From assembly GCA_030390025.1 (NCBI GenBank), contig JASTWF010000338.1, positions 186,001 to 250,000 on the forward strand: a DNA stretch of 64,000 nt, read 5' to 3'. Shown piece by piece: positions 12,991 to 51,922 of this stretch. The notes below the pieces were generated by a model. That model saw only the letters and a list, made by a program, of their open reading frames with translations. It was not told the DNA's origin and searched no databases. Position 1 is the first letter of the stretch; every line of letters begins with the position of its first letter. Source of the DNA: Squalus acanthias. Taxonomy: Eukaryota. The translations under genes were made by a program, and so were the position numbers.

Positions 12991-13057
12991 ATCTGCCTGG
13001 AGATCGGGGGTTCAGCAGATCACAAGGGGGTGGGCGGATCATAGGGGAAGAGGCCGA

Positions 13058-25805: not shown

Positions 25806-25930
25806 GGTTGCAATAAAGGCCAACATTCCATTTGCCTTCCTAATTACTTGTTGTACCTGCATGATAACTTTTTGTGTTTCATGTACGAGGACCCGCAGAT
25901 CCCTCTGTACCTCAGCATTTTGAAGTCTCT
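25806..25930 (-). mobile_element. CR1 fragment, left part of the LINE split by the provirus
   Basis: MQVQQVIRKANGMLAFIA. Removing the provirus and one CTCT restores colinearity with the CR1 copy near 9380. Confidence 0.85.
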
Positions 25931-27594
25931 TGTAGAATTCGCAATTATCACGATTTGATTAATAAGGAGAAAACACAAAGTTTCGTTCAAACAGCTTTTA
26001 TTTCAGCAGAATGCTGTCAGGTTTAAATTGGACACAAGCAGCCTGTAAAATGGCCGCCGCACCGCGTGACAGAACATTCTAGACTTTTTAACAGGCAGAC
26101 AAGATGGCGTTCCAATACACATTTTTGCAAGATCGATAACGATTCAGCACAGTGAAGATAATACCCGAGACATTATGGGTTTGCAGTATAAACATAGATA
26201 CTGAAATCGGTCTCCCAGGTACAAAGGAAAGCCATTGTACCGAGTAATCAAGGGCCCATCCAAAGGACATTAATATGTAAACTCCCAACGGCTCTACGAT
26301 GAGAGAGCCGTTAGCAGGTAGTTATACAGGACACTTGGAAGCCCCAAACCCCTCCAGGGAGAACACCGACCGATTTAGCAATGGGAGAAGTATTAACAGG
26401 TACTCAAACATTCATGAGTAGCCCCGAAACCCATTAAGAACGGAGATCACCCATACAAGACATTTGGGCGCCAAACCCTAAACAAAAGAATGGACATTAT
26501 AGTTGGGCGGGAAACGGAAGATTTTTGCACTATAATTGCAGGCCCCAAACCGTCCATTCGCTCTCTTGACTCTTGTTCTTGATCCTGCATTCGCTCGCTT
26601 GCTCCTGTGTTTTATCCGGTCGATTCGTAACCTCGTGGCTGCTCCTGTGTAAAAGACTGTTGAACTTTCTGATCCGTTCGGATCTACCTCGTGTCGCGTA
26701 ACGAAGACCTATGTTGGTAACTGGCAGCGGAACCAAAGGCCCGAGATGAGATGAGATGAGATGAGATGAGAGGAGAAGAGAAGAAGACCATATCCATCGC
26801 CACGGTCAGTAAATCCCGACCGCGCCTGTAGGTCGATCAGCCAAGTCTTCTCAACAGGAAGTTTTCTTCTTTAAACTTCTAACAAGACATATTGCATCAA
26901 TGATAACTGGACTGTGCAAACACATCGTATCAGTGATATTGACAACGGGGCTCCTCAACTAAACTGTGAAGTCAACCAACAGAGGTCTTCACTACAGCAG
27001 ACGGTCCAGCCTACTAGCCCGAGCAGCAGAAGCCAGTAAACAAGTGGGATCAGGAGATCTCCTGACCGACACGTGGGTGCTGCGGTGAAAAAACATCCGA
27101 TCAGCTATTCGGAATTTCTCCGAGTTATTACGAGTGGTGAGCATGAGTCTCGAGATCCTACGAAGCTAGTTTAGGATAGATATTGATAGGGGAGGGTTTA
27201 AAGATTAAGGATATTTGTAATGTGTGCCCTATTTACGTCGTGCCGTTCGTTCCTCGTTTCCCTAAGAGTGATTATAACCGTTTGTAAGATTGTACTGTCA
27301 TTAATCTGTGCGTATGACATGTATTTCATAATTTTAAGTATCATGCAATAAAGATTTTCCATTTCGTACCGTTCAAACCAAGTCTACATGAGTTTTATCT
27401 CCATTACTGCTCTCGCATCTAAGTCCAGTGTCTAGAACCGTAAGGGAGAGTGATTCGAACCACTCACAGGTGTGTCTAGTGTTCCCAGACTGGCTGGAGA
27501 CCAGGCCTAGACCCGCACTGACATACAGGCTGCACAGAGCCGCGTGAATCTCACAGGCTACGAGACACGCAGGGTCAGGAGAGAATCCCTTACA
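25931..27594 (+). repeat. 5' LTR (1664 bp)
   Basis: Direct repeat of 37026-38689 (offset 11095); no differences seen by eye. Confidence 0.97.
26505..26540 (+). promoter_or_regulatory. Putative LTR core promoter (GC box, ETS-like CGGAAG, TATA-like TATAAT)
   Basis: GGGCGGG 26505-26511, CGGAAG 26515-26520, TATAAT 26531-26536, followed by a pyrimidine-rich stretch. Confidence 0.55.
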
Positions 27595-27598
27595 GAAA

Positions 27599-29410
27599 AT
27601 GGCGACCGCGGCAGGACACTGGCAGCGAGAGGGTAGTGTGTTAGATTTTGGAATGACTGTACGAAATGTTATGCAGGAAAAGATAGCGGATTATGTGTTT
27701 GGAAAGGTTAATCTAACTAAAAAGTGGATAAGCGAATTGTTAGCGGATAAGAGCCCACTAGAGGCAGCTGAAAGGTGGACTGATAGTAAGGAGCATAAAA
27801 AGGCAGTTGAGAAAGCAGTCTGGCTTATGTGCTACAAAAGGCAGGTTCAGATTTCAAACCAGACCAATACAGCGCTAACAGCTCGAATCAAGCATTTAGA
27901 GGAGGAAATGGAGGAGAAGGTTTCTGGAGGGGAGGTGCTCATTAAGAGTTTAAATGAGTTACGCCAGGAAAGCCAGGAAGTCTCCAGTTACCTTAAAACA
28001 AGGGTAGAGTATCTCGAGTGCCAGATCACTGAAGCAAAATTGAACGAGAGTAGGATGAAGGAAAGATGTAACCGCCAAGCTGCCCAGATAAGAACTCAAG
28101 AAGAGAGCTTAATGGGGGTTAGGTCGGCGTATAAGTTGGCCCTTGAGGATAAGTTTCAGGGAGCCGACCATAGCGCCTGCCAAAAAGAGATAGAGAGCCT
28201 CAAAAAGGCCGTGAATAATGCGAACGGCATGGTGTGCCTTATCAATCCGTCGGCGCGCCAGCCGCTAGTAAATGAGAGATTTAGAAATTCCCCACCAAGT
28301 AAAGCAGAAGAAGTAGTAGCCACTGCGCCCTCCGCGCCACCCAGCTATTCAGAAACCTGGGTTAGGGAGGAAGCAACGGAAGAAACAAAAGAGCCCGTTG
28401 AAAAGGAAGTAGAAAAGGGATCGTTGTATCCAGTAACGGGGATTAAAAGGGGCCCAAGCAGAAACGGTGGGGAAGAACCGGGGGATCTCCTCGGACAGCT
28501 GGTGTTGCCTCACAGTTCACATCAGCTGAGAGCCATGATAAACCACGTAAGGAAGCTGACCGAGATAGACGACCCTTCCGTACATTTCAGGGAAGTTGAG
28601 CAAGCCGCAGCCATTAACGGCTGCGATGATGGGGAGACAGCAAAAATGCTGCTGTTCTCATTAGACAGCTCGGTCCTTCAGTGTCTCTCAGGCGAGAGCA
28701 AGAGGGGAAATAAAAGTTATGAGGAATTGAAAAATGAGGTCCTAGAAGTAGTGGGAGCGAACGACGGAGGTCCGTTTGCTAGAGTGGGACAGACAGTGCA
28801 GATGGAGGGAGAACCCCCGAAGGTTTTTGCCGACAGGCTGTGGCCAGTATATGAGCGCAGCTGTCTAGGTGCGCCCGAGCGCGAAGATGTGGAAGGCGCC
28901 GCTTTAATTCATTGGCTTAGGTGCATAATAGCCAACAGTTTACCAGCCGTTAGAGAGCAGGCAAAAGCCTGGTTCGATCCCAATGACCTCAACCTTACGG
29001 AAGAGTCGGTCCTGAATCGACTCACGTTAGGTTACCGTAACATAAGGGGTATGACGACACGTCCCTTTAAGGGAAGAGTACATGAGGTACGACCCGCAGC
29101 CCCAGCTCAGAGAGAGTGGCATCAAGAGGGTAATCGCGCCCCACAGGCAAGTAATGCCTGTTACGGGTGTGGGAAGACAGGGCACTGGCGCAAGCACTGC
29201 AGGAACCCTTGGAAGGATTCCAAGGATAAAAATCCCGCGGTCCGAGCCCAGGCGCCTGTCCCGCCTAAGGAAGCAAAGGCACCCACCTCCCCCGACGACC
29301 TCGAAGCAGTGTTAGGAGTCATGCGCAAGATGGTTTTGAATGCGCGTGGACAGGTGGCGGTCGCAACCGGCCCCGTAGGTGCCGCAGGACCGTCTAATAG
29401 TGCCCCATGA
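27599..29410 (+). CDS. gag: Gag polyprotein (603 aa): N-terminal coiled coil, PSAP/PPSY late domains, capsid-like region, CCHC knuckle
   Basis: Heptad-rich region, TAPSAPPSY, CYGCGKTGHWRKHC; position directly after the LTR. The start codon could be a downstream ATG. Confidence 0.9.
   Translation: MATAAGHWQREGSVLDFGMTVRNVMQEKIADYVFGKVNLTKKWISELLADKSPLEAAERWTDSKEHKKAVEKAVWLMCYKRQVQISNQTNTALTARIKHLEEEMEEKVSGGEVLIKSLNELRQESQEVSSYLKTRVEYLECQITEAKLNESRMKERCNRQAAQIRTQEESLMGVRSAYKLALEDKFQGADHSACQKEIESLKKAVNNANGMVCLINPSARQPLVNERFRNSPPSKAEEVVATAPSAPPSYSETWVREEATEETKEPVEKEVEKGSLYPVTGIKRGPSRNGGEEPGDLLGQLVLPHSSHQLRAMINHVRKLTEIDDPSVHFREVEQAAAINGCDDGETAKMLLFSLDSSVLQCLSGESKRGNKSYEELKNEVLEVVGANDGGPFARVGQTVQMEGEPPKVFADRLWPVYERSCLGAPEREDVEGAALIHWLRCIIANSLPAVREQAKAWFDPNDLNLTEESVLNRLTLGYRNIRGMTTRPFKGRVHEVRPAAPAQREWHQEGNRAPQASNACYGCGKTGHWRKHCRNPWKDSKDKNPAVRAQAPVPPKEAKAPTSPDDLEAVLGVMRKMVLNARGQVAVATGPVGAAGPSNSAP
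27600..27617 (+). promoter_or_regulatory. Putative primer-binding site (tRNA-Ser-like, imperfect)
   Basis: TGGCGACCGCGGCAGGAC, 5 nt after the LTR. Shares TGGCG....CGGCAGGA with the complement of the vertebrate tRNA-Ser 3' end. Confidence 0.6.
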
Positions 29411-32400
29411 CTAGAACCAGCACAGCCCGTCTACCTGTGTCCGCTCAGCTATGATGCGTGGAGGCGACCTGTGGTGGAGATGGAGGTAGAGAAACAGAAG
29501 GGCAGTTATTTGTTGGATACGGGAGCTTCTTGCACCATAATCCATACAGATGACCCTTTTGACTCGCCGCTATCTACCAAGGTCCCATTCACGCTAGCAG
29601 GGTTCACAGGGAAAGAACAGGCTGGCACGTTTTCCCTCCCGCTATCCATTCGTTTAGGAACACTTCGCCTTAAGTGGAAGTGTATACTGATGGCATGGCA
29701 AAAGGGGGGTGGAAGAGGTATTCTCGGGTCCGATCTCCTAGCGGGACACGGGATCCTCGTGGACCTCAGAAATCACTGTCTCTGGGGGGCTAAAGGTGAA
29801 AAAGGCGAGGTAATGGTAATTCAAGGGGAGGAAGAAACAGGGGTCCTGTGTACCGTACAGCCATCCGGAGGCTACGACCTCAGGCTTATGGTCGCAGATG
29901 TCCCAACGGACATGCAAACGTACGTGACAGATAATATGCACGCGTTTGCAACCCACAAGCACGATTGTGGGAGGGTGGTCGGGTTTGAGGTCAGCGTAGA
30001 TGGGGACCCCATGACCCGACCCCAAAAGCAGTATAACTTCCCCAAAGAAGCAGAACCCGATATGGAGGCAGCAATGTCTTCCTTGGTGCAGCAGGGCGTG
30101 TTGAGGCCGATAGCCACACACGTGAACTCCCCATTATGGCCGGTTAGGAAGCCGGATAATTCGTGGAGAGCCACGGTGGACTACAGAGTCCTCAAGAGTA
30201 ACATTCCCGCCTGCGCGCCCACAGTAGCAGCAGTTGCTGACCTAATAGGGAGCATCCCAGCGTCCGCGACCACGTTCACGGTGCTGGATATCTCGAACGG
30301 TTTTTGGTCCATCCCGCTGCGGCGAGAGGACCAGTACAAGTTTGCCTTTACGTTTAAAGGGCAACAGTACACGTGGAACTGTTTGCCACAGGGTTTCCAC
30401 AATAGCCCCAGTATTTTTCACCAGTGTATGGCAGGAAGTTTAAAGGAGTTTAGTCAGCCCAATCAGATAGTACAGTATGTGGATGATTTGCTCCTATTTA
30501 CGGACTCAAGGGAGGAGCACGGACCACTACTGGACGAGTTATTGGAGCTGTTAGCGAGAAAGGGTTTTAAAGTAAACCCAAAGAAAGCACGTATCGGTCA
30601 GCAGGAAGTAAAATTCCTGGGGCTGACCCTACGCGCTGGGGAAAGAGCCATAGACAAAGCAAGGAGGGAGTCGGTGCAAGAATTACCGATTCCCAACAAC
30701 GTAAGGGGTGTGAGGTCCTTCTTGGGACTGACCGGTTACTGCAGGGATTTTATCGAAGATTATGCGGCCACAGCGGCGCCGCTCCTCCGACTCCTCCATA
30801 AGGGGGTGGAGTGGCTTTGGGACGAGGGCTGCCAAGCAGCCTTCGAGAAGTTAAAAAGGGATCTGCAGACCGCGCCAGCCTTAGGGGCCATAGATGGGGG
30901 GAAGGAGTTTTTCCTGGAGGTAGCTGCCAGCGGGGACAGCTTAAGCGCCGTACTGCTCCAAGAGCGTCACGGCAAGCTGAGGCCGGTTGTCTATTCATCC
31001 AGGGTATTAACGGATGTGGAGAGAAGTTTTTCCAATTGCGAAAGGCACCTTTTAGCCACGCATTGGGCTGTGAAAAGATCAGCGATCTTCACAGGGCTCT
31101 CTCCCATCACTCTCCTCACACATCACACACCAACTAAGATGCTTCTGGATGGGAGGATTAAAGACGGGACCGTAAGCAGCGCACGCATTGCGCGTTGGAC
31201 CCTTCTTCTCTCCCAGTTGGACATCAGAGTAAAAGGTCTTTGCGAGCCCAGGCTTGCGGCCAATTTGGTATACCCCGGTACAGCCCACCGGTGTTCGGTG
31301 GAAGGGGTGTGGGACGTCAACATAGGTTTACGGGCCGGGATACATCCCACTGGGCGCGAGATTTATGTTGATGGGTCTAGCACAGTGTCTGCTGGCGAGC
31401 GACTCACAGGGTGTGGAGTTTATGACCCTGCGGCAGACCTTGCCCTGGCGATCAAGCTCCCTAGCACCATGAGCGCGCAGCAGGCTGAGCTGTCTGCCGT
31501 GGTGTACGTGGTGACCCACCCAGACATTTTCCCAACCCCATACACGATTTGCTCGGACAGTATGTTCACCTGCAATTCGTGTACGGAATACCTGGCCATT
31601 TGGTCCCGCCGCGGATACACCTCCGCGGACGGGCGACCTTTAACGGTGAAGCCCTTGCTGGAAAAGATTTTAGCAGCCGCAGTAGGGGAGGAAGGGGAGA
31701 TTTTCATCCATAAGGTGAAAGCTCACTCCTCCACAGAGCCCCGTGGGGAGGGCAACCGGCAGGCGGATGCGCTAGCCAGGGAGGGTGCCCGCGACGGCAC
31801 TTTCTGGAACCCCTATAGGACCGGACCCATAGCAGCGGTCCGAGGCGGGGACGGGAATACCGGGAACACCAGGGTAGCATTGCCCCTAGACCTTAAGACC
31901 GTCCAAGCCCAGGATCCCGCCCTAAAAGCAGTCCTAAAAACGATTGCTGAGGGGAGGCAGGTAGAAGGTCCGTACAGTACGGCAACCCTCTCAGTTAAGG
32001 AAGGCATGCTGTTCCGCGGGGAGCAGTGGGTTGTGCCGCAGCAGCACAGGAGGGAATTCCTCCAGTTGGCTCACGAGGGACCAGGGGCAGGGCACCCCGG
32101 GCCCGAGGTTACCTGGCAACGGGTAGAGCAAGCGGGATGGTGGCCGGGGCTCAGGGAACAAGTCCGCGAGTTCTGTGCAAACTGTCTTGTGTGCGCTGCA
32201 AATAACCCAGACCCCCAGAAAAGGAAGGTGCCCATGGGACACGTAAGAAGGGTAGAGGGACCATGGCAGTCGATACAGATCGACTATATAGGACCCCTGC
32301 CCACCACCCAGGGAGGTTATAAGTACTGCCTCGTCCTGGTGGATGTGTTTTCCAAGTGGGTGGAAGCCTTCCCTTGTCGAACAGCTACGGCACTGGGTAC

Positions 32401-33934
32401 AGCAAAAATCTTGGTCCGGGAAGTGTTCTCGCGGTGGGGACTCCCCCGTTTTGTGGAGTCAGACCAAGGGAGTCATTTCACCGGCCAGGTGATGCAGAAC
32501 ACCCTCATGCTTTTGGGCATTGAAGGGAAGTGGCACGTAGCACACAATCCCCAGTCATCCGGGATTGTCGAACGTATGAACCGGACCCTGAAGGAGAAAT
32601 TGAGGAAAGAGACTAGGAACTCGCCCCAAAAATGGGCGGAAGTTCTGCCTTTAGTCCTCATGGGGGTCCGGGCCAGTCAGTCAAAAAGTACGGGGTACTC
32701 CCCGCACGAGGTAATGACCGGCAGGCTCATGCGAACCCCCACCCATGTGCTAGCCCCGGTGCTCACTGAGGGTCAGCTTCAAGAGATCAGCAGGGACAAG
32801 TTCGCCCAAACTCTCTTGGAGCGCCTGAAGCAAGTTTATGAGCAAGCGGCTGGGAACATGGGAAGGCAGCATCAGGGCAATCGCTTGTTGCTGGAACCCC
32901 GCAAAACGCGGGAATGGGAAGTAGGAGACCAGGTCATGGTCAGAAACTACGCCAGAGTAGGGAGTCTGGAACCACTGTATATGGGACCCTACAACATTGT
33001 AGACAAGGCGAGTCCCATGGTTTACGCCGTAAAAGTACCTCGGCGCACTAAGTGGTTCCACATAAACCAATGTAAACTGTACCAGCCGGGTGCGCAGGGG
33101 AAAACTACAGGGGTAAATCCCGCCAATGGGAAAACACAGCCCCAGGTAGGACCACAAGGCACACAGGCAGGCGTAGCAGCTTGCATCAGGGGAAGGGACA
33201 TCCCGGACGATCATGCAGCGTTTTTCTGGAGTTGGGGGTTAGATGACGAAGAACCCAGGGTACCCTGGTCAGATGAGGATAGTGCAGATGAGCATAGTGA
33301 TGATGACGGGTGGTTCCTGAGGAACGGTCTGGGAGGATTGGGGCCGATAGGTAGAGATCCACACGGGGTGGACACACAAGCTGCAGGTCCCGACAACAGG
33401 AGGGAGGAGCTAGAGGAGGCAGGGCCAGCCGCTATAGGAGCACAGAGAGTACCCATGTGGTTCCCAGAGGTGTGGCCGCCCGCTTTGAACGTCCAGTCCT
33501 CAGGGGAGGCAGAGATCACGAGTGAAGGGCCGCCTGCTGGGCCGAGCAGGGCGGAGCCACGAAATGCCAGCCCCGAGGTTAGGGAGGCGGAGTCAGCGGA
33601 GGCGGAGCCGGCGACTGTGATGAAACCCCAGGTCATCCCGTTGGAGGTCTCGGAACCCGGTCCGTCCGTCACGGAACCCCCGCCCATAGCAACTCCCCGT
33701 AGGTCAAGCAGAGAACCCCAGCCCAGGAGGATGTGGTCATGTCCCCAGACTGCCCCAAGGCGTAAAATTCAGGTTAAGATAACCCGGGTAGAGACAGGCC
33801 ACATCGCAGCAGTAACAGGCTGCGGCAGATCAGAGGAAAGGGTCAGCGCAGCAACAGGCTGCGGCAGATCAGAGGGAAGGGTCAGTGCCCTCCCACCGTC
33901 GGGAAGAGCTCGCAGCAGCCTTCTCAGAATTTAA
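29411..33934 (+). CDS. pol: Pol (protease, RT, tether, RNase H, integrase, C-terminal extension), in frame with gag
   Basis: LLDTGAS, LPQGFHNSP, YVDD, YVDGS..AQQAEL..SDS..GNRQAD, HHCC, QIDY..SDQG..VERMN and GPY. Open from 29411 directly after the gag TGA. Confidence 0.95.
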   Translation, partial: LEPAQPVYLCPLSYDAWRRPVVEMEVEKQKGSYLLDTGASCTIIHTDDPFDSPLSTKVPFTLAGFTGKEQAGTFSLPLSIRLGTLRLKWKCILMAWQKGGGRGILGSDLLAGHGILVDLRNHCLWGAKGEKGEVMVIQGEEETGVLCTVQPSGGYDLRLMVADVPTDMQTYVTDNMHAFATHKHDCGRVVGFEVSVDGDPMTRPQKQYNFPKEAEPDMEAAMSSLVQQGVLRPIATHVNSPLWPVRKPDNSWRATVDYRVLKSNIPACAPTVAAVADLIGSIPASATTFTVLDISNGFWSIPLRREDQYKFAFTFKGQQYTWNCLPQGFHNSPSIFHQCMAGSLKEFSQPNQIVQYVDDLLLFTDSREEHGPLLDELLELLARKGFKVNPKKARIGQQEVKFLGLTLRAGERAIDKARRESVQELPIPNNVRGVRSFLGLTGYCRDFIEDYAATAAPLLRLLHKGVEWLWDEGCQAAFEKLKRDLQTAPALGAIDGGKEFFLEVAASGDSLSAVLLQERHGKLRPVVYSSRVLTDVERSFSNCERHLLATHWAVKRSAIFTGLSPITLLTHHTPTKMLLDGRIKDGTVSSARIARWTLLLSQLDIRVKGLCEPRLAANLVYPGTAHRCSVEGVWDVNIGLRAGIHPTGREIYVDGSSTVSAGERLTGCGVYDPAADLALAIKLPSTMSAQQAELSAVVYVVTHPDIFPTPYTICSDSMFTCNSCTEYLAIWSRRGYTSADGRPLTVKPLLEKILAAAVGEEGEIFIHKVKAHSSTEPRGEGNRQADALAREGARDGTFWNPYRTGPIAAVRGGDGNTGNTRVALPLDLKTVQAQDPALKAVLKTIAEGRQVEGPYSTATLSVKEGMLFRGEQWVVPQQHRREFLQLAHEGPGAGHPGPEVTWQRVEQAGWWPGLREQVREFCANCLVCAANNPDPQKRKVPMGHVRRVEGPWQSIQIDYIGPLPTTQGGYKYCLVLVDVFSKWVEAFPCRTATALGTAKILVREVFSRWGLPRFVESDQGSHFTGQVMQNTLMLLGIEGKWHVAHNPQSSGIVERMNRTLKEKLRKETRNSPQKWAEVLPLVLMGVRASQSKSTGYSPHEVMTGRLMRTPTHVLAPVLTEGQLQEISRDKFAQTLLERLKQVYEQAAGNMGRQHQGNRLLLEPRKTREWEVGDQVMVRNYARVGSLEPLYMGPYNIVDKASPMVYAVKVPRRTKWFHINQCKLYQPGAQGKTTGVNPANGKTQPQVGPQGTQAGVAACIRGRDIPDDHAAFFWSWGLDDEEPRVPWSDEDSADEHSDDDGWFLRNGLGGLGPIGRDPHGVDTQAAGPDNRREELEEAGPAAIGAQRVPMWFPEVWPPALNVQSSGEAEITSEGPPAGPSRAEPRNASPEVREAESAEAEPATVMKPQVIPLEVSEPGPSVTEPPPIATPRRSSREPQPRRMWSCPQTAPRRKIQVKITRVETGHIAAVTGCGRSEERVSAATGCGRSEGRVSALPPSGRARSSLLRI

Positions 33935-33978
33935 AGGGGCCGCCCTGAGAACGGGCGGCACTGTAAAGTTATTAGTTT

Positions 33979-34065
33979 AAGGTTTTAAGTTTATAGTTCA
34001 AGGTTAAGGTTTTAAGTTTATAGTTCAAGGTTAAGTTTTAAGTTTATTAGTTCAAGGTTAAGTTT
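33979..34065 (+). repeat. Three tandem ~27-bp T-rich repeats in the pol-env spacer
   Basis: AAGGTTTTAAGTTTATAGTTCAAGGTT x3. Confidence 0.85.
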
Positions 34066-34252
34066 GTAGTGTTTTAACAGATAACGATAAAATGGTGGGA
34101 GTTTTAAGGCTAGGTTTTAGAGGAAGTCTATTCAGCAAACGTTGAAGTTTACGTGAGGCGAGGTCAGGGGACCCGCTCACCTTTCACAAAAGCCAGAGAC
34201 TTTTTGCGAGGCTGGCTACCTCATTCTATCTGATCACAGGAACCAAGGAAGG

Positions 34253-36604
34253 ATGGAACGACTTATAGTATTGCTCGTGGCAATCGGATGTGGATTGGCC
34301 TATCGAGGCCACACCAAGGATGTCGTGGTGTTTGGATGTTCCGGGGACACGGCCCCCATCGCGGTGGATGGGACCGGAAGACGGAAGGCAGAGGGGACCA
34401 GCACCTATTTCCACAAGGGAAGGTGGCCAGGATGGCTGGGAACGAACTCAACGGAGTATTCCAGCACATCGGGGTTCGCCTACAAAGAGACTTCTTTAAT
34501 GTGCCCCAAAGTACGGATCATCGCACCCAGGATCAGCGTCACCGTCGGCAAACGGATTTGTTTGACCTGTAGTGGGGATGTCCCATTGAGCCGATGGTGG
34601 TGGCTGCGAAAGCTGAGCAAAACTATGAGGAACTCTTCGGTCGAGTGGGAACGACTGGGTAATAATACCCATCGGACAATTACGGGGACAAACGGACAAG
34701 TGAAAGTCTGTTGGGACAAATGGTGGGAACCGGATGAGGGGATTTATGTTTGTATGTGGGGGTCAAAGTACGTTTGCCCCAAAGGCATCTCCATATTTTT
34801 TATTAATCAGTGGCAGGATAACGGACAGGGGATGAGGTGGGATGCGAGCACCAGGGGGTGCGGAGCCCCATTCTCCCCGATCCCAGTAAATGCCACTGAG
34901 CTCATTACGCGCCCACGCAAAGCCCCGCCCACGATTCCGGTGGTTCTAACTGAGGAAGAAGGGTGCCCTAAAACTAGTAAGGGACCCGGGAACGGTTTGG
35001 TACTGGTCCCCACAGACCAGATACTATTTCAGGGGGTACATTACGCGGTGGCCTCGGTGATTTTAAATCTCACTGAGGTACGGTTACCAGAGTGGTGCCC
35101 CAAAAAGACGGAACAGTTGTATCAGGTCCTGTTGACCAAGATGTTCAGACAATTTTACGAGTTTGATTTTGCAGAAATTGATAAGGCAAGTTTGTATACC
35201 GCACCGCAGGAAGTTTTGGATCAAGTAGGGAGGCAAAGAAGGGGTTTGGTGAACGATGCGTTCACTGCTTTTAATACAGGGACATCTGTGGTCAACGCTC
35301 TAGACAGTGTGGAGCTGCAGACCCAGATTAATGGTTTAAAAACACAGTTAAAAGACATTCTAACAGATGAGAATAAAGTGGTAGGGTCAGGTCTGCATGA
35401 GGACCAAGCCATGACTCTCCATTTAAAGGAGATCATAGCAGAGCTGGAGAAACATGCGCGTACGGTAAATGCCCTGATCAGGGAAGATCGGAATGCATCC
35501 GATCAAGCTGCGCAGAACGAGGTGTGCGTGCTTTACGGGGCGTGGTTACTAGGCGAGGGCCGCAGTAATTTGGAGGATTTAAAACAAGGTTTGGTTCCGT
35601 CCTGGATAAGTAACAAACACCTGCGGGCGCTCCACCCTTTTCAGAACGCATTAAGTCCGTGCCAGCTCAGGCTAGCTTCAGAAGCTTACCCAGTCCCCGT
35701 GGACTGCGGACGTTCAAACCATACTATTATGGGAATAGTATTACGCATGCCGGTTTTGGGCAACACAGCAAAGCCCGCCCCGGTATATCGGGTAGAGAAC
35801 ATTGGTGTCATTCAGGGGGGAGCCCACATTCGTTATGCAGCGGTTCCACCTTACGTCATCCGCTGGGAGCAAACGATGACAGGTACAGATCTCTCTGGTT
35901 GTCGTGGCAGGGGAGCACACATAATACTGTGCCCCCAGCACTTGAATGCCTTTTTAACACCACAGTGCGGGTTCAGAACGGCTGGCGCCAAGTCCATGAA
36001 TTGCACCATGGAGGCAATGGCACAAGATCATGTGCCTCCGCAGGTAGCATACATCGGGGGTGGAACATATTGTGTTACCACTGCAGCGCAACACTACCAG
36101 CATGGAAACCGTAGCCGGTGTCCGGTGAGTGACAGCAGTTTCTGTTTTAAACCCAGGGCTGAAGTTCAAGTAGCACAACAGCGAATTATCCCAATCCCTG
36201 AACCATCCACTGTTCATCTCACAGTAAAAGAGAATTTCACCGACTTGCAGCGATTTGTCGCGCATTTTGGATACCTCATTCCCCCTCTCCCTGAGCATTT
36301 AACCAAACTTCTGAAAGCCGTCGCGGTATCACAGAAGCATTTCTATACGTTAGAGCAGAAAACTGTCGAAATTGGAACAGACATTTTGGACATAGTGGTT
36401 CCACCGTGGTGGAATCTGTTCACTAATATTGAAGTGCCCTCATGGGTCAGAATAGCCTCCCACATTTTAGTCGTCTGTCAAGTGTTTATTGTAGTGTACC
36501 TATTGTTCATACATTGTAAAAGAGACAAGCGCCTCACCAAGCATGAGAACACGGGAGAGTGGCGAGAACGTTACGTGCGCGTGCACGATGAGAGCACCGT
36601 GTAA
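34253..36604 (+). CDS. env: Envelope glycoprotein (783 aa): signal peptide, Ig-like domain, furin site, fusion-peptide/heptad region, Cys-rich region, TM
   Basis: MERLIVLLVAIGCGLA; RQRR|GLV at 35231-35242; heptad QINGLKTQLKDIL; TM HILVVCQVFIVVYLLFI; several NxS/T sites. No CKS-17 or CX6CC motif. Confidence 0.9.
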   Translation: MERLIVLLVAIGCGLAYRGHTKDVVVFGCSGDTAPIAVDGTGRRKAEGTSTYFHKGRWPGWLGTNSTEYSSTSGFAYKETSLMCPKVRIIAPRISVTVGKRICLTCSGDVPLSRWWWLRKLSKTMRNSSVEWERLGNNTHRTITGTNGQVKVCWDKWWEPDEGIYVCMWGSKYVCPKGISIFFINQWQDNGQGMRWDASTRGCGAPFSPIPVNATELITRPRKAPPTIPVVLTEEEGCPKTSKGPGNGLVLVPTDQILFQGVHYAVASVILNLTEVRLPEWCPKKTEQLYQVLLTKMFRQFYEFDFAEIDKASLYTAPQEVLDQVGRQRRGLVNDAFTAFNTGTSVVNALDSVELQTQINGLKTQLKDILTDENKVVGSGLHEDQAMTLHLKEIIAELEKHARTVNALIREDRNASDQAAQNEVCVLYGAWLLGEGRSNLEDLKQGLVPSWISNKHLRALHPFQNALSPCQLRLASEAYPVPVDCGRSNHTIMGIVLRMPVLGNTAKPAPVYRVENIGVIQGGAHIRYAAVPPYVIRWEQTMTGTDLSGCRGRGAHIILCPQHLNAFLTPQCGFRTAGAKSMNCTMEAMAQDHVPPQVAYIGGGTYCVTTAAQHYQHGNRSRCPVSDSSFCFKPRAEVQVAQQRIIPIPEPSTVHLTVKENFTDLQRFVAHFGYLIPPLPEHLTKLLKAVAVSQKHFYTLEQKTVEIGTDILDIVVPPWWNLFTNIEVPSWVRIASHILVVCQVFIVVYLLFIHCKRDKRLTKHENTGEWRERYVRVHDESTV

Positions 36605-37013
36605 TAGGAAAATGGCGTCACTCCCGCTCGCCACGTGCGCCGCGGAAGTTTGTACTCATTGTAAATACGTTGGAAACTCGATATGTTTAAGAGTTGGGAT
36701 TTGTTTATTTTGGTGATGGTGTTGATTGTGTGGTTTTGGGTTTTGTTTTTCCTTTCCCTGAATAAAAGACAAATATACAGGTGATGCGTGAGGTATCGGC
36801 CTGGTTACGCCGGGAAGGAAAACAAGTGGTGTAAGTTTAAGGGCAAATGATGCCTACGGTGATATAAAATGTGATTTTCTTGGGAAATAAGGACGACACA
36901 GAGACCCTAGTCAAGTTAAAATTTATGGGATTAATTTACTGGATTCGGAGTGAAATCGAGATAAGATTGCTCACCACTGAGATTTTGATACGATAAGCGG
37001 AGTTATTCGCATC

Positions 37014-37025
37014 AACAGGAGGGAC
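37014..37025 (+). promoter_or_regulatory. Polypurine tract
   Basis: AACAGGAGGGAC immediately before the 3' LTR. Confidence 0.7.
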
Positions 37026-38689
37026 TGTAGAATTCGCAATTATCACGATTTGATTAATAAGGAGAAAACACAAAGTTTCGTTCAAACAGCTTTTATTTCA
37101 GCAGAATGCTGTCAGGTTTAAATTGGACACAAGCAGCCTGTAAAATGGCCGCCGCACCGCGTGACAGAACATTCTAGACTTTTTAACAGGCAGACAAGAT
37201 GGCGTTCCAATACACATTTTTGCAAGATCGATAACGATTCAGCACAGTGAAGATAATACCCGAGACATTATGGGTTTGCAGTATAAACATAGATACTGAA
37301 ATCGGTCTCCCAGGTACAAAGGAAAGCCATTGTACCGAGTAATCAAGGGCCCATCCAAAGGACATTAATATGTAAACTCCCAACGGCTCTACGATGAGAG
37401 AGCCGTTAGCAGGTAGTTATACAGGACACTTGGAAGCCCCAAACCCCTCCAGGGAGAACACCGACCGATTTAGCAATGGGAGAAGTATTAACAGGTACTC
37501 AAACATTCATGAGTAGCCCCGAAACCCATTAAGAACGGAGATCACCCATACAAGACATTTGGGCGCCAAACCCTAAACAAAAGAATGGACATTATAGTTG
37601 GGCGGGAAACGGAAGATTTTTGCACTATAATTGCAGGCCCCAAACCGTCCATTCGCTCTCTTGACTCTTGTTCTTGATCCTGCATTCGCTCGCTTGCTCC
37701 TGTGTTTTATCCGGTCGATTCGTAACCTCGTGGCTGCTCCTGTGTAAAAGACTGTTGAACTTTCTGATCCGTTCGGATCTACCTCGTGTCGCGTAACGAA
37801 GACCTATGTTGGTAACTGGCAGCGGAACCAAAGGCCCGAGATGAGATGAGATGAGATGAGATGAGAGGAGAAGAGAAGAAGACCATATCCATCGCCACGG
37901 TCAGTAAATCCCGACCGCGCCTGTAGGTCGATCAGCCAAGTCTTCTCAACAGGAAGTTTTCTTCTTTAAACTTCTAACAAGACATATTGCATCAATGATA
38001 ACTGGACTGTGCAAACACATCGTATCAGTGATATTGACAACGGGGCTCCTCAACTAAACTGTGAAGTCAACCAACAGAGGTCTTCACTACAGCAGACGGT
38101 CCAGCCTACTAGCCCGAGCAGCAGAAGCCAGTAAACAAGTGGGATCAGGAGATCTCCTGACCGACACGTGGGTGCTGCGGTGAAAAAACATCCGATCAGC
38201 TATTCGGAATTTCTCCGAGTTATTACGAGTGGTGAGCATGAGTCTCGAGATCCTACGAAGCTAGTTTAGGATAGATATTGATAGGGGAGGGTTTAAAGAT
38301 TAAGGATATTTGTAATGTGTGCCCTATTTACGTCGTGCCGTTCGTTCCTCGTTTCCCTAAGAGTGATTATAACCGTTTGTAAGATTGTACTGTCATTAAT
38401 CTGTGCGTATGACATGTATTTCATAATTTTAAGTATCATGCAATAAAGATTTTCCATTTCGTACCGTTCAAACCAAGTCTACATGAGTTTTATCTCCATT
38501 ACTGCTCTCGCATCTAAGTCCAGTGTCTAGAACCGTAAGGGAGAGTGATTCGAACCACTCACAGGTGTGTCTAGTGTTCCCAGACTGGCTGGAGACCAGG
38601 CCTAGACCCGCACTGACATACAGGCTGCACAGAGCCGCGTGAATCTCACAGGCTACGAGACACGCAGGGTCAGGAGAGAATCCCTTACA
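37026..38689 (+). repeat. 3' LTR (1664 bp), AATAAA at 38442-38447
   Basis: Direct repeat of the 5' LTR, ending CCTTACA followed by the TSD. Confidence 0.97.
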
Positions 38690-39478
38690 CTCTCTCCATT
38701 TAAAAAATCATTTGCTTTTTTATTTTTCCCACCAAAGTGGATAACCTCACATTTTCCCACATTATACTCCATCTGCCAATTTTTTCCCCACTCACTTAAC
38801 CTATCTATATCCCATTGCAGACTCTTTGCCTCCTCCTCACAACTTGCTTTCCCACCTATCTTTGTATCATCAGCAAATTTGGCTACAGTACACTCAGTCC
38901 CTTCATCCAAGTCATTAATATAGATTGTAAATAGTTGAGGCCCCAGCACTGATCCCTGTGGCACCCCACTAGTTACAGTTTGCCAACCTGAAATTGACCC
39001 ATTTATCCCGACTCTCTGTTTTCTGTTAGTTAGCCAATCCTCTATCCATGCTAATATATTACCCCCAACCCCGTGAGCTCTTATCTTATGCAGTAACCTT
39101 TTATGTGGCACCTTATCGAATGCCTTCTGGAAATCCAAATACACTATATCTACTGGTTCCCCTTTATCCACCCTGCTCGTTACATCCTCAAAGAACTCTA
39201 GTAAATTTGACAAACACAATTTCCCTTTCATAAAACTATGTTGACTCTACTTGATTGTATTATGAATTTCTAAATGTCCTGCTATTACTTCCTTAATAAT
39301 AGATTCCAGCATTTTCCCAATGACAGATGTTAGGCTAACTGGCCTATAGTTTCCTGTTTTCTGTCTCCCTCCTTTCTTGAATAGAGGCGTTAAATTTGCG
39401 GTTTTTCAATCCGCTGGGACCTCTCCCGAATCCAGAGAATTTTGGTAGATAACAATCAACGCATCCACTATCTCTGCC
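38690..39478 (-). mobile_element. CR1 RT fragment, right part of the LINE split by the provirus
   Basis: ORF 39231-38653 with YLDFQKAFDKVPH, GVPQGSVLGP and FADD. Confidence 0.9.
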
Positions 39479-45559: not shown

Positions 45560-46130
45560 TGTCGAAGTTTTACATGCCGAGTAGGACTCTTTTTTTAACA
45601 TAGAATCGTGTCAAAGAAGGCTTTTTAATAAAGTTTACTTGTTACAAGGGAAGGTTCTGACACAGTCAAGTTGCTATGTCAGAATGCTTCGAATCTTACA
45701 AGATTTGAACATACTTTATACAAAAAGAACACAGAACAGGCCATATGACATAGCATTAAACATCCTGATTAATGATGCACAAACTTGTGAGTTATTGCAT
45801 AGGTTTTCGTTATAATAACGAGCAGAAATTCCTTAAAGATCAGATAACCAGACCTTCCTTGTGGGATCCCTTTGTTCAATGTTCATTCTCTAATCTGTGG
45901 GTTGATGGCTTACCTTATCTCATCCTGAGCTGGTTAGAACTAATTGATGCCTTATTTTGCTAAGCTTTTCTTAGATAAGGAATTCTGAGTTGTCCCCATC
46001 CTTGTAGCTAATTAGAATGATTTACTTATTATGGTGACTCCTACTGTCGGCCATTTTGAATTCCTTTTTTAAAATTATTTTCTCAGAAAAGCCATTTTGT
46101 TTGTGTCTAGAAGTAAACTGCACTTCTACA
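45560..46130 (-). repeat. 3' LTR of the class I ERV
   Basis: Matches 54329-54899 with about 6 substitutions by eye. Preceded on the minus strand by PPT AAAAGGGGAAAA (46131-46142). Confidence 0.95.
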
Positions 46131-46485
46131 TTTTCCCCTTTTGTCCTTTCTAGGACAACATAGCTTTCTCCTAACGGTCCTTATACTAACTCAAAATCTA
46201 GTCAAGGATACCGACTTCTTTTCTGTTTGTAACCATCCCCGGGATATACCTGTATTGATGGTTGACCTTATCTAAGATCGTCCTTCTTCTCTGTCTATTC
46301 TCGGTGTTTGGGCGTATGTTCTTGTAGGGCTTTTAGTTGTGTTTTGGTGACTGTGGCGTACTTTTGTGGTTCATTAGTCTGCTGTTCTCTAACTTTTCCT
46401 GCAGCTTATACTAGCCTGCAGTTCGGGTGTTGCTATACACCCTCTAAGGAGATAGGGTACAGCAGTTCATAGAGGAGTTCTAAGT

Positions 46486-46661
46486 CATGGCCCACACAGT
46501 TTATGCCTAACCTGTGGGACTCTCCTAGGGAACTGCAGCTTATAGAGGAGGACTGATTCATGACCCACACAGTTTATACCTAACCTGTGGGGTTCTCCAA
46601 AGGAACTACAGCTGATTCATGACCCATACAGTTTATACCTAACCTGTGGGGTTCTCCAAAG
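46486..46661 (-). repeat. Three ~59-73-bp direct repeats in the ERV 3' UTR
   Basis: CATGACCCACACAGTTTATACCTAACCTGTGGGGTTCTCC at 46486, 46559 and 46618. Confidence 0.85.
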
Positions 46662-46860
46662 CACAAGTGCTTCTACGTGAGCCTCCAGAGTGCGGACCAA
46701 GTGGTATACAAGGTCGACGTCACCGGCAGTTGAAAGGAGTCCTCTCTCTTTCCCTAGCCTGCAGATCCCATTTGGGTGGAAGAATATGTTTACCGAAAGT
46801 GGGGAGCATGCAAAAATGTATATATATATATATGTATATTTTGTCTAGGTTGTCTAATCC

Positions 46861-48327
46861 TTAAAATTGCATTTTATTCAATCGCCTCAGTTCCTCCCCG
46901 AAGGGACCATACTTTTCTTCTTCGTCATTTATTTCTTTCTGTATCATCATACTTACTTCAGGTATGACTACCTTGCCTAACCTATTACAACAACACTTAA
47001 TCATTGTGACAACCAAAATGATACATGCAATCGCGGCTACTACTACTACTAATCCATGCAATAATACTTGTCCCATTGATCCCAACCATCCCCCTAATAT
47101 CCAATCAGCCCAGCCGCCTTTGGTCCTGGATTGATAGAGCAGGGCAACCTGTTTCTGAATATGGTCCGCTAAGTTGGTTATATTTTCAGAGCTATCTGGG
47201 ATATATGTGCAGCATTCTGCTCCGATCATGGCACATGTACCTCCCTGTGCAGCTAGTAGGTAATCTAGTGCCATTCTATTTTGTAGGGCGATGGTTCTCA
47301 GGGCTACCATTTCGGCGCTCACCTCCCTCAGGGATTTAACCGTGTCGTTAGCTACCCCCTCGATTAATGCTGACAGTAACAGTATTTCTTGGGAAGTAAA
47401 CGCTATTCCAGCAGGGGGAAACATAGCTCCAACTAACATCTTCCATGTGGGGAGTTCTCTTTTCTTACAGCTATGCTTATGGTGGTCTTTCAATTCCTTT
47501 ATGTGGTGTATGTATGGTACTACATACCCCAAATAGCATGATCCTGCCCAATTCTCTGGTAGCCAAGGGTATGCTCTGTGACCGCATATGAAGTACGTCC
47601 CGTTATAGGCTGTCACTATCTGTCCCGGTTGATCAGGGTTCACGTTGGTGCGGAAAACAGTAAAACCCATCTGATTGTCAGTATTCAATCATTTAGTCCC
47701 ATTCCATGGTCTGTTATTAGTCAAATTCATCAAACTGGTAGTATTGAACCACCAGCTTTCCATGGAACTTCCTGCCTCGTACGTAATAAACTTTTGTATG
47801 CAACGACTTTTTCCCACATTAACTCTGTTCCCTTTAGTCTGTCCTAGATCGCATTCCCAGCATATATCCCCGATCGGTCAGCCCTTTCCCGATGTATTGG
47901 TAAGGGCTAGAAAAGGAGGTTCTTTCGTATAATCATACGTCGGCTTGTACCATCCCTTAAAATTTTCTAACGAATATCCTCCACCCTTAAACTCGTTTCT
48001 TAGGCTAGACCACTTTTGTTCCCATATTTTTCCGAAGATGGATAGGGTGGTATTTTTCTGTTTCGTATGATTTTTATTAATTATCCATTCTGCCATATCT
48101 GTGAGGTTCAAGGGTATCGGTCGCAGGGGTATTCCTCCTTTCACATGGGTAGGAATATGGCTACATACCCAACAGGCGTTTATCCCACTTTTTTTGGCAT
48201 ACTTATATGACATATACAAAAAGGTGTTCATATGTAATTCTCGTTTCTTTCGGGGTTCTTTTCTTCTCCCTTGGCAGGCTATACATATCAGTCCGATTAG
48301 TAGGTAAAACATAAATAACAGCTTCAT
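46861..48327 (-). pseudogene. env: Gamma-type env with two in-frame TGA stops (47878-47880, 47689-47691)
   Basis: Signal peptide, CWVC (CXXC), ISD LQNRMALDYLLAAQGG, CX6CC and TM. Both ORF pieces are in the same frame. Confidence 0.92.
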
Positions 48328-48352
48328 TATTTAAGTCTTTTCAAATTCAAAT

Positions 48353-51300
48353 TCAACTGTCCTTATCTGATACTTTCTTGCAATGGGATGCGTGGATCCA
48401 GGTAGGTCTTTCCTTGACTTTTACAGCTGTATTTGTTGTCAAGAGTACTTGATATGGCCCTTCAAAGCGTGGCTGCAGACCGTTCTTCCTCTTAAAGACC
48501 TTTATGTAGACGTCATCTCCTGGTTCCAAATTATGGCACTTTCCTTCGGCCGGTTCCGTTTGAGCTTCCTTTACCTGTTGGTGAAAGCTGGAAATACATC
48601 TAGTTAATGCAATGCAATAGTTTAGCATATTTTCATCCATTTTATGAATATCCATTTGTTTAACCGTAAAGGGTGCTGAGAATGGCAGTCTTTGGGGTCT
48701 TCCCATAACAATCTCATGTGGCGACAGTCCAGTTGTCCTGTTAGTTGCTGCTCGCATTACCATCAATGCTAAGGGTAACAGTTCAACCCATTTTAGTCCA
48801 GTTTCATTGCAAAGTTTAGAAAGTTTATTCTTCAGTACTCCGTTATATCTTTCTACCAGCCCTGCAGATTGTGGATGATAACTGCAGTGAAAATGCTGAT
48901 TAATCTGCAAGGCTTTACATAGTTCTTTAACGATCATTCCAGTAAAGTGCGATCCATTGTCGCATGAGAGCTGCATAGGTATTCCAAACCTTGGTATGAT
49001 TTCTTTTAGCAAACACTTCGCAACTGTTACAGCATCATTCTTTTTACATGGAAAAGCTTCCACCCATCTTGAGAATGTGTCTATAATTACCAACACGTAT
49101 TTGAATCCTAAACATACAGGTAATTCAATAAAATCCATTTGCAAATTTACAAAAGGGCCTGATGGATTTGGGTGGGAGGCAGACTGTACTTTCTCTGTCT
49201 TGCCTAGATTCATTTCCTGGCAAGTGGTGCACCTTTCACTAATTTGTTTTGCAATTGCCGAAATACCTGGTGCATACCATGTTTGATTAATATAGTCTGC
49301 CATCCCCCCTTTGCCCGCATGCTTGAAAACATGAACGCAGCGGGCAATCCACGGGAGCAGAGATTTCGGGGCTACCATGTGGCCGTCATGGTGAACCCAT
49401 ATCCCTTCAGGCGTTTTAAAGCACGAATCCCTTGCCCAACTTAACACTTCGTCCGAGTTAGCCTGTGACTGAAAGGTCAAAACATCATTAATAGAAGGTG
49501 GGTCATTTTGTTGATGCAAAACAAATGCTGAGACTTGTGGCCCTGTATCTGACAGAGCGGCTGATTTAGCAGCTTTATCTGATCGATCGTTACCCAGGGA
49601 GATCTGATCCTGACTCCCGGTATGAGCCTGACATTTGATGACTGAAATTTTTGTGGGACACGCTAGGGCTTTTCAAAGGATACTAATTTGTTCAGCATTT
49701 TTAACAGTTGTTCCTGATGAAGTTAGAAACCCCCTTAATTTCCAGATCTGTCCGTAATCATGAGCAACCCCGAAGGCGTATCTGGAGTCGGTATAGATAT
49801 TAACGGTTCGACCAGCAGCTAGTATGCAAGCCCTTGTAAGAGCGAAAAGTTCTGCTTGTTGCGCTGAAAAAGACTGAGGTAATGAGAGAGCTTCCACAAT
49901 TGAATGATCATCTGAAATGGCATATCCAGCCCTAGGTGATCCCCTGTCATCCCTAAGAGCTGACCCGTCCACGTAGTATATTAAGGCACTATTAAAAATA
50001 GGAGTTTCAGATAGATCTGTTCGGGCCTTGGTAGCTAATTGGGTAACCGTCTCACAGCAATGTGGAATTCCGTCTTCTTCTGTTGGCAGCAGCGTGGCTG
50101 GATTCAAAACTGAACACCTTTGAATTAGGAGGTTGGAATTAGATAGCAATGCAACCTCATATTTACTGCTACGGGCTGATGTCAGACGTTGGGTGGCGTA
50201 TTTTGTCAGTAGTACTTCAACTGAATGTGGCACAAATAAAACTGTTCGCTGATTAAGTGTGATGCCTTGAGCCTGTTCCACTGCGTAATAGGCAGCGGCT
50301 AGAATTGGCAAGCACCCAGGCAAACCGCGTGCAACGCGATCTAATTGAGTACTGAAATACGCTAATGGTCTCTGTTTATCCCCATGGATTTGAGTCAGAA
50401 CAGATTGAGCAAAGCCCGCTTTATGATGGACGAAAAGGTTAAACTGCTTCTGATAGTCTGGTAGCCCTAATGCTGGGGCTGATATAAGGGCTTGTTTAAC
50501 ATTTTCAAAGGCATCTTCAGCCTTTTCGTCCCAGGCGAGAGGATCTTCCGCTGTGGGTGCGGAAATATCCAGCAGTGGGCGTACCAGGTCAGAATATCCC
50601 ACTATCCACTGTCCACAGTATCCTGACATGCCGAGAAAATGTTTCAACTGCTGTTTAGTGCTAGGCAAAGGTGCCTCACAAATGGCTTTAACTCTTTCTT
50701 GCATCAAACGGCGGCTATTGCCATGGAGCTCATGTCCCAAATATTGTACTTTCTCTGACACAAACTGCAGCTTAGAACGTGATACTTTATGTCCTTTTGC
50801 CGCTAAGGCACGTAGCATAATGAGCGAGTCGGTCTGGCATGATTGTACATCGGGTGAAGCTATCAGTAAATCATCGACATATTGGATAAGTGTGGATCCT
50901 CCGGTAAAGTGTATGTCTTCTAAATCACGTTTAAGGCTTTGCGAAAAGATTGTGGGGCTTTCTGTGTAACCCTGCGGGAGTCTTGTCCAAGTGAACTGTG
51001 TTCCTTTAAATGTAAAGACGAAGAGGAACTGTGAATTTTGAGGGATAGGGATACTAAAGAAGGCTGAGCATAAGTCAATGACAGTGTAGAATTTCGATCC
51101 AGAGGGAATGCTAGTCAGGATCGTGGCAGGATTTGGCACAACTGGGTAAACGGGTAATACTGATTCGTTCACTGCCCTTAGATCCTGCACAAGTCTCCAC
51201 TTCCCACGCTCTTTCTTCTCGACCGGAAAAATCGGAGTGTTACATTGGCTCTGGGTTGGAACAATTATTCCTTGCTCCAACAAAGAGTTAATGACAGGCT

Positions 51301-51922
51301 GGATTCCTTGTTCGGCTGCTGTTGAGATCGGGTACTGCGGTCTACGGGGCAATCTGACAGATGGTTTTAATGTAACCTTGTATGGCTGAGCAGTTAACAT
51401 TTTTCCAACCTCGTTTGAATGGCTAGACCGTACTTGTGGTGGAATTTGATCGAGTAGTTGCTCTGTTTCCCGTGAGGTGTTGGCAATTGGAGGGGCGCAT
51501 TCCTGCAAAGGATACATAGTGCATCTATCAGTAGGGATGTACACCTGTAGTCCTTTTTCTGAACAAATTATTGTAGCTTGCATTTTGCACAGCAAATCTC
51601 TCCCTAAAAGGTTCATAGGGGCATCGTCTGACAGAAGAAAAGCGTGCTGGCCAGAAAAATTGTCTGCTTGTATTTCTAATGGCTGTGACCACGTCATAGT
51701 CTGCGAGACGCCGGAAAGTCCTACACATGTAGCGCTCTTCTCTGTACACGGAGTTCCCTTAGCGTATTGCTTTGTTAATAGCGAGCTTGTGGCTCCTGTG
51801 TCAACAAGAAAAGGAACTCTCTTGCCCTGCATTTCTATGGATAAATATGGCTCATCTCTAGAATTTACTGATACTGAAGGTAATTGTAAAATGTGGGTAA
51901 CGTTCGGGGCTGTTTCACTGCG
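48353..51922 (-). pseudogene. pol: pol (PR-RT-tether-RNase H-IN) with one in-frame TGA at 49673-49675
   Basis: LVDTGA, LPQG, YVDD, YVDGS, QMDF..DNG..VERYN and GPY. The frame continues through the stop ([21 protein letters not shown]) and is in frame with gag after TGA-CGC. Confidence 0.93.

Follow-up and report, generated by a model that had tools for sequence, protein, structure and literature searches.

We analyzed a 64,000-nt stretch of the Squalus acanthias genome (GCA_030390025.1, contig JASTWF010000338.1, positions 186,001-250,000; hereafter the window), which contains a complete provirus at 25931..38689. This element is most probably a canonical, class III-grade endogenous retrovirus (ERV) that carries an F-type envelope protein (Env) related to that of lokiretroviruses (loki) and has undergone massive and very recent amplification in a cartilaginous fish. 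In the founding paper (PMC7947760), lokiretroviruses are defined by their reverse transcriptase (RT), which forms a sister clade to the canonical retroviruses as a whole. An earlier note on this DNA had labeled the provirus lokiretrovirus-like, and this label did not withstand the RT phylogeny described below. The provirus Env does match loki Env, so that the impression had a real basis in this protein. Judged from the sequences, the likeness to loki is real in Env and possibly extends to the integrase (IN).

RT and RNase H place the provirus among canonical retroviruses

The loki references comprised three metagenome loci and two proteins recognized by the loki motif, plus P0109, which groups with them. 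Further references were 16 foamy-motif genomes, 23 other retrovirus records (genus labels inferred), gypsy-like Pols and L001, the record whose RT matches the published row of snakehead retrovirus (SnRV). RT trees were calculated from 83 rows (thinned from 134), 33 rows and, under a mixture model, 24 rows, leaving out Odin elements and ERV-L.

In all three trees the provirus RT lies within the canonical retrovirus clade (ortho- plus spumaretroviruses) at a support of 100/99, and the loki references form an opposing clade, also at 100/99, in the 83-row tree. A grouping of the provirus RT with loki was rejected by approximately unbiased (AU) tests, both with 33 rows under LG+G4 (p 0.0035) and with 24 rows under the mixture model (p 0.021). 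The motif RCPFG...FNIFL, common to the loki rows inspected in the supplement of the founding paper (PMC7947760), is lacking in the provirus RT, which instead carries CLPQGFHNSP, resembling SnRV and ERV-L rows. The RT shares 50-54% identity with the Pols of frogs and coelacanth, 43% with SnRV and 33-36% with loki and foamy viruses; over RT and RNase H together, the closest named Pols are again those of frogs and coelacanth (43-45%). In the RNase H tree (21 rows, 147 columns), loki and foamy viruses form a clade (98/96) with the provirus outside, and the joining of these two groups agrees with group I of the founding paper (PMC7947760). The free integrase tree, calculated without CGIN1, leaves the provirus outside loki (86/90), but AU tests do not reject joint clades.

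Lokiretrovirus membership was thus rejected on RT (clade, AU tests and motif) and on the placement of RNase H. The combination of tether and RNase H, which the earlier note had listed for loki, is present in pol but is common to all retroviruses and Odin. Membership in the foamy viruses (Spumaretrovirinae) was rejected because RT lies outside the foamy clade (100/100) and Gag has a Cys-His box. Membership in Ty3/Gypsy, including errantiviruses, was rejected because RT lies outside the gypsy elements and a tether plus RNase H is present; a position inside ordinary Gypsy clades, raised in the earlier note as a case against its own proposal, was not what the RT tree showed. On these sequence comparisons, the provirus is best regarded as a canonical retrovirus of class III grade, with frog and coelacanth elements as its nearest relatives and SnRV loosely nearby.

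The statement in the earlier note that sharks were not among the described loki hosts agrees with the table of the founding paper, which has none in the six chondrichthyan genomes checked (PMC7947760). When the host genome was searched by exact pattern for genuine loki elements, one match turned up, without an RT frame; such a pattern cannot show absence.

Env resembles paramyxovirus F proteins and matches loki Env

The structural model of Env has a mean predicted local distance difference test score (pLDDT) of 62.6, with the core (residues 245-650) mostly above 70. Its top matches in Foldseek are paramyxo- and pneumovirus F proteins (E 1e-11). With VIA-align, F proteins were matched at Z 8.3-10.6, the top Z of 10.6 coming with a root-mean-square deviation (rmsd) of 18.6 across 362 residues. 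For foamy virus Env (8rm0 and 8rm1), Z was 8.6-8.7 (at Z 8.6, rmsd 5.7 across 277 residues). The layout of the protein consists of a hydrophobic N-terminus, a furin site RQRR (aa 327-330), a fusion peptide, a long helix, an F-type cysteine-rich core and a transmembrane segment near aa 734-752; a CX6CC motif is absent from Env. The hydrophobic N-terminus probably serves as a signal peptide. A possible Ig-like beta-sandwich at aa 80-183 gave weak matches (Pfam Ig_3 at E 0.023; structural matches at Z 5.2-6.1). Residues 1-235 folded alone reached a pLDDT of 38 and did not match the N-terminus of SnRV Env (probability 0.4).

At the sequence level, the provirus Env used as a single query against a set of 11 records matched both loki Envs, one at 14.5 bits (E 6e-6) and the other at 13.1 bits (E 2e-5), and none of 200 block-shuffled Env controls reached the loki match (best shuffle 4.1 bits). 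A 39-row profile of the Env family scored 63-64 bits for loki, 16-22 bits for six foamy Envs and 19 bits for SnRV, while the best row among other retroviruses had 7.7 bits and gamma-type rows at most 3. The same profile aligned to SnRV Env with an hhalign probability of 92.8 over 339 columns. The idea that Env is simply SnRV-like was weakened, as loki Env scored higher in both profile and single-sequence searches. The resemblance to Mononegavirales fusion proteins proposed in the earlier note was thus borne out by both structural searches, with loki Env in addition matched by sequence.

Among the 19 of 49 matches that were looked up, Env relatives were found in Rhinoraja, Pristiophorus, Mustelus, Chiloscyllium, Heptranchias, Heterodontus and Scyliorhinus, and more distant ones in frogs and coelacanth. 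The closest are from skate and sawshark (62-77%), in accord with the cartilaginous-fish host that had been proposed from the sequence alone.

BFVD Env models of walleye epidermal hyperplasia virus 1 (E 2e-11) and walleye dermal sarcoma virus (E 3e-10) also match the provirus Env model, suggesting an F-type Env in epsilonretroviruses as well. Four public gene models (P0002, P0003, P0036 and P0065) contain pieces of this Env family fused to Niban-like, cadherin-like, zinc-finger and F-box proteins, reflecting either annotation artefacts or exonisation.

Structure and insertion site of the provirus

All features of the provirus are on the plus strand. The long terminal repeats (LTRs; 25931..27594 and 37026..38689) are both 1,664 bp long, have TG...CA ends and show no mismatch to each other; CTCT is found on either flank (25927..25930 and 38690-38693). 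The flanks are supplied by an interrupted fragment of a CR1-like long interspersed nuclear element (LINE; 25808..38826). In an uninterrupted LINE copy at 9275-9530, the two flanks (123 and 135 bp) join end to end and CTCT occurs only once, indicating that the CR1-like LINE was split by insertion of the provirus.

The gag gene (27599..29410, 603 aa) is a stop-free frame that closes with TGA in the context TGA-CTAG. Its product has an N-terminal helical/coiled-coil region, a PSAP late motif (aa 244) and one CCHC knuckle (aa 521-534). The pol gene (29411..33934, 1,507 codons) continues the gag frame beyond this single TGA and contains, according to Pfam, a protease (PR), RT (30029-30820), tether (30881-31225), RNase H (31358-31789) and IN (32030-33082). 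The catalytic motifs are DTGA of PR (29513), YVDD of RT (30476), D-E-D-D of RNase H, and HHCC and D,D,E of IN. A C-terminal tail of about 280 aa after IN had no Pfam match, and the Pfam search gave no family at a useful level for Gag and Env; the Atlas yielded a single unnamed cluster at 0.84, which is no more than a lead. The env gene (34253..36604, 783 aa) is again stop-free and follows a candidate splice acceptor ending at 34239. Between env and the 3′ LTR (421 nt) there is no accessory frame of at least 100 aa, smaller frames being outside that search, and a polypurine tract (37017..37024) lies one base ahead of the 3′ LTR. LTR, gag, pol and env have observed-to-expected CpG ratios of 0.67-0.88, compared to 0.45 and 0.49 in the flanks. 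On all these points the earlier note had read the element correctly: a complete provirus with identical-looking LTRs and a CTCT duplication, three uninterrupted open reading frames with all catalytic motifs, a tether with RNase H, and many CpGs. A 14-bp T-rich repeat is located at 33960-34068, between pol and env.

A large and very young family

Exact 24-mer markers gave 3,054 env and 1,164 pol matches in the host genome, and an LTR 28-mer typical of the sub-lineage of the provirus gave 747; these counts are lower bounds from one assembly, possibly including duplicated haplotypes. From the two largest contigs among those with the LTR marker, 20 full-length and 10 short copies were sampled by position; 10 pol-marker copies lacking the LTR marker and 15 env matches lacking the pol marker were added. 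Of these 15, seven are pol-less and eight come from pol-bearing subfamilies of greater divergence (84-92%); the pol-less class thus accounts for only part of the excess of env matches.

The LTRs of the sampled copies are 1,487-1,770 bp long and 85-95% identical to the provirus LTR. Over 37 measurable LTR pairs we counted 38 substitutions, 0-5 per pair, with 12 pairs fully identical; one pair with 140 differences was dropped (probably no true pair, or rearranged), and two of the 10 pol-marker copies were unmeasurable. The mean age of the pairs corresponds to 0.14, 0.6 or 1.4 million years (Myr) at the three rates taken from PMC7947760, PMC10699275 and PMC4422223, and the age of the provirus itself to less than 0.4, 1.8 or 4.1 Myr at 95%. 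The shark ERVs dated in two of these papers are old (PMC4422223; PMC10699275). Target duplications of 4 bp are exact in 25 of 30 copies and in 8/8 others. Every sampled copy carries a private LTR variant, yet its two LTRs match each other, which makes assembly collapse unlikely, a concern that the earlier note itself had raised. The very recent age that it proposed agrees with the lack of LTR mismatches in the provirus, the 0-5 substitutions in family pairs and the open frames. All three frames are open in 10/20 full-length copies, as are gag and env in 9/10 short copies. Nine single LTR-marker matches (L055-L063) included six solo LTRs with a 4-bp duplication and one that belongs to a longer copy as its 3′ LTR. 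Sequence that is nearly identical (share of words 0.46-0.76) also occurs in runs of five labeled organisms from nine studies, reflecting related hosts or mislabeling.

Purifying selection and a pol-less class

Crude ratios of nonsynonymous to synonymous changes (dN/dS) for shared variants are 0.14 in gag, 0.06 in the pol core and 0.08 in env of full-length copies, and 0.16 (gag) and 0.06 (env) in short copies. Thus, gag, pol and env are under purifying selection. Singleton variants also have low ratios (0.08-0.28), indicating that most differences arose during viral replication.

In the pol-less class (L045-L054), the region encoding PR, RT, RNase H and IN (29443-33118) is swapped for about 334 nt with an internal repeat. 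The left breakpoint is shared in 10/10 copies and the right one in 8/10. Past the gag stop, 9/10 copies retain an open frame of 373-393 codons with the Pol C-terminal tail at its end. This tail may have an independent role. The filler of three copies gave no match to gag by blastp or blastn. Monophyly of the short copies was rejected for both gag (p 0.001) and env (p 2e-51), and they are interleaved with full-length copies. That the short copies have a deletion in common but no corresponding clade in either gene suggests that they recombined repeatedly with helpers, which also accounts for their gag and env appearing selected.

Origin of Env and mode of spread

A further-reaching reading, with clearly less than an even chance, is that a retrovirus is now invading the germline of a cartilaginous fish by reinfection, has left thousands of copies together with helper-dependent satellites, and represents a deep canonical lineage that has kept the F-type Env of loki. 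Spread through Env-dependent entry is likely, and the odds are about balanced between Env being inherited from an ancestor shared with loki and Env having been swapped in long ago. A virus with canonical RT and a loki-matching Env, whose profile reaches the snakehead and foamy Envs, provides a bridge for the question of Env origin. If this further-reaching reading is true, the Env ancestral to both loki and canonical retroviruses would have been an F-type fusogen, retained in the provirus lineage, in snakehead and foamy viruses and perhaps in epsilon viruses, and replaced in the gamma and beta types. This would contradict published work that has the two kinds of Env arise separately: in the papers defining lokiretroviruses, loki Env is described as without detectable similarity to canonical Env and independent origins are discussed (PMC7947760, PMC9040795).

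Several observations weigh against the main reading, that of a canonical, class III-grade retrovirus with a loki-related F-type Env. As a single sequence, the provirus Env did not match SnRV or foamy Env in the 11-record set; the link to these Envs comes from the 39-row profile, which includes frog and coelacanth Envs whose pol was not seen. For the integrase, joint clades with loki were not rejected (AU p 0.068 and 0.29), and identity to loki (34-37%) exceeds that to SnRV (30%). The provirus is a long branch within canonical retroviruses, and its class III placement is weak: grouping with SnRV, frog, coelacanth and bird elements reaches only 87/95 in one tree (a 25-row group of the 83-row tree) and is an open fork in the 33- and 24-row trees. 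The loki reference set consists of five to six motif-recognized sequences, mostly of one teleost-type subgroup, in trees that left out Odin and ERV-L. Purifying selection on env shows Env to have been important in the population that replicated, and says nothing about infectivity now. Finally, half of the 20 full-length copies carry a stop or frameshift, some of which are perhaps assembly errors.

The foremost alternative, with a probability just short of even, is a recombinant, that is, a class III retrovirus that took env, and perhaps the integrase, from a loki-like donor long ago. It differs from the main reading only in the history of env, and the Env link would then be silent on the ancestral retrovirus. 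In its favor, Env is far nearer to loki than to SnRV or foamy Envs by profile score, yet the RT is canonical, and anamniote retroviruses commonly swap env (10.1101/2021.11.23.469661; PMC8278194). Env relatives are, however, found in at least seven chondrichthyan genera as well as in frogs and coelacanth, the host groups of the nearest Pols, so any swap must be ancient. Moreover, the snakehead and foamy Envs are also F-type (PMC11468914), which fits shared ancestry with unequal rates equally well.

It is unlikely that the family spread mainly by intracellular retrotransposition, with env retained only through recent descent from an exogenous ancestor. Thousands of copies are the usual scale for intracellular amplifiers, and the LTRs vary by 5-15% from one copy to another, which places much of the diversity before each insertion. 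Against this, no env-deleted class was found: env is covered in 30/30 close copies and env markers outnumber pol markers, in samples chosen by LTR, pol and env markers, which an env-less class with a variant LTR could escape. The recurrent deletion takes out pol rather than env, and the env variants of the pol-less class are mostly silent (shared variants, 46 silent versus 9 amino acid-changing).

A divergent true lokiretrovirus, the first in cartilaginous fish, would explain why Env matches loki Env best among the references, why the integrase is not excluded from the loki group, and the shared gene order and tether; it is nonetheless very improbable, as the loki motif is missing from the RT, two models reject this RT from the loki clade, RNase H lies outside loki plus foamy, and the nearest Pols are of class III type. 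That LTR identity is an artefact of assembly or gene conversion in an older element is hardly credible, even though the contig that contains the window (C2649) is unplaced and junctions were checked in contigs only, given the private LTR variant of each pair, the 12/37 identical pairs with none above five substitutions, and the open frames and retained CpG that agree with youth.

Comparison with known systems

The provirus shares several features with SnRV and the class III clade Huo (PMC6001957; PMC12193657), namely an RT among canonical retroviruses, a single stop (TAG in L001, TGA here) between gag and pol of the same frame, one CCHC knuckle, a similar primer site and an Env homologous at the profile level. 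The SnRV primer site is one that we take to be for tRNA-Arg. Unlike SnRV, it has no accessory frame of at least 100 aa after env, accessory frames being a trait of SnRV and not of the whole group; its LTR is very long, its Env of 783 aa has a short tail, its IN is only 30% identical, and a sister relation is not supported. Old SnRV-like lineage I ERVs, dated above 50 Myr, are known from elephant shark (PMC4422223).

With lokiretroviruses, or lokiorterviruses, the provirus shares the order LTR-gag-pol-env, the tether plus RNase H, and an F-type Env with a basic cleavage site, and some loki copies likewise have identical LTRs (PMC7947760; PMC9040795). It differs in RT and RNase H placement, in the missing RT motif, in about 230 extra N-terminal residues of Env and in its host class, which screened negative for loki in the genomes mentioned above; there is no fourth long frame, so that the smc gene, found only in some loki members, is lacking. 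The frog elements XtERV-S and AfbERV-S (PMC8278194) also combine a class III pol, a gag-pol TGA, identical LTRs and a pol-env mismatch. They use tRNA-Ser and have a class I (gamma-type) transmembrane protein, in contrast to the tRNA-Arg primer site and the F-type Env without CX6CC of the provirus. Foamy viruses share the F-type Env core (PMC11468914; PMC5512871). The provirus differs from them in an RT outside their clade, a Gag Cys-His box, the putative expression of pol by readthrough of gag, and the lack of accessory genes. Foamy virus Gag has no Cys-His box, and foamy pol is expressed apart from gag.

Two of the three hallmarks of invading ERVs (ERVi; PMC10435555) are seen in the provirus, i.e., identical LTRs, and gag, pro, pol and env in intact form; the third is insertional polymorphism. 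The ERVi survey lists none for 13 cartilaginous fishes, two of which are starred in its table (PMC10435555). The present family, with its thousands of near-intact copies, makes it possible to test directly whether endogenisation is under way in sharks or skates.

F-type Env has been published for loki (PMC7947760) and foamy viruses (PMC11468914), and the survey of anamniote Env was limited to the gamma and beta types (10.1101/2021.11.23.469661). We found no description of this provirus family, or of an element combining a canonical RT with a loki-related Env, in a search of the open literature, Repbase/Dfam and subscription journals being outside it; in that scope, the case of an already catalogued family, which the earlier note had considered, did not arise. 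An F-like Env alone is an unsafe marker of lokiretroviruses in annotation.

Cis signals and proposed expression

The 18-nt primer binding site (PBS; 27600..27617) consists of TGG and the complement to the final 15 nt of the host tRNA-Arg(TCG) genes, that is, complementary to the tRNA 3′ end plus CCA, and is invariant in 30/30 sampled copies. A serine primer, guessed from XtERV-S, was thus ruled out. The tRNA pattern derived from the PBS has 431 matches in the host genome, indicating that the primer tRNA gene is highly amplified, and 4/4 loci inspected were tRNA-Arg(tcg). Host tandem arrays (G000:C26, about 38.99-41.9 Mb; L105-L107) consist of a 1,623-bp unit with tRNA-Arg(TCG) and tRNA-Ser(GCT) genes. 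The PBS begins 5 nt past the LTR end (27595-27617), compared to the usual 2 nt, and the gag ATG overlaps the PBS, so that the entire leader sits in R-U5.

In the same 30/30 copies, the gag stop context TGA-CTAG, an established readthrough context, is kept, the AATAAA at 27347, the candidate splice donor at 27440 and the env ATG contexts are invariant, and the 14 nt ahead of the 3′ LTR are the same. AATAAA and the donor would function as poly(A) signal and splice donor. Contigs of two putative RNA runs, which are possibly DNA-derived, cover all 30 bins; a splice joint was absent among the best 15 of 71 joints, and we conclude nothing on expression from this search.

In the proposed cycle, genomic RNA from the LTR would yield Gag and, by readthrough of the TGA, Gag-Pol, and a spliced mRNA would yield Env, which would be cleaved by furin at RQRR and mediate F-like membrane fusion. 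tRNA-Arg would prime reverse transcription, and integration would produce the 4-bp duplications. Enveloped particles may re-enter germline cells and thereby spread copies, and pol-less genomes may be packaged alongside helper genomes, with which they may recombine in reverse transcription.

Other elements in the window

A second, unrelated provirus of gamma/epsilon type is located on the minus strand (45560-54899) and has 571-bp LTRs with six mismatches. Its gag encodes Gag_p30 and a CCHC knuckle, its pol follows a TGA and has one more in-frame stop near 49673, and it carries an integrase tail of murine leukemia virus type and a gamma-type env remnant (TLV_coat). The window further contains a 31-bp tandem array (11464-12700), a 13/27-bp G-rich array (12817-13003) and a degenerate 22-bp array (59528-60286).

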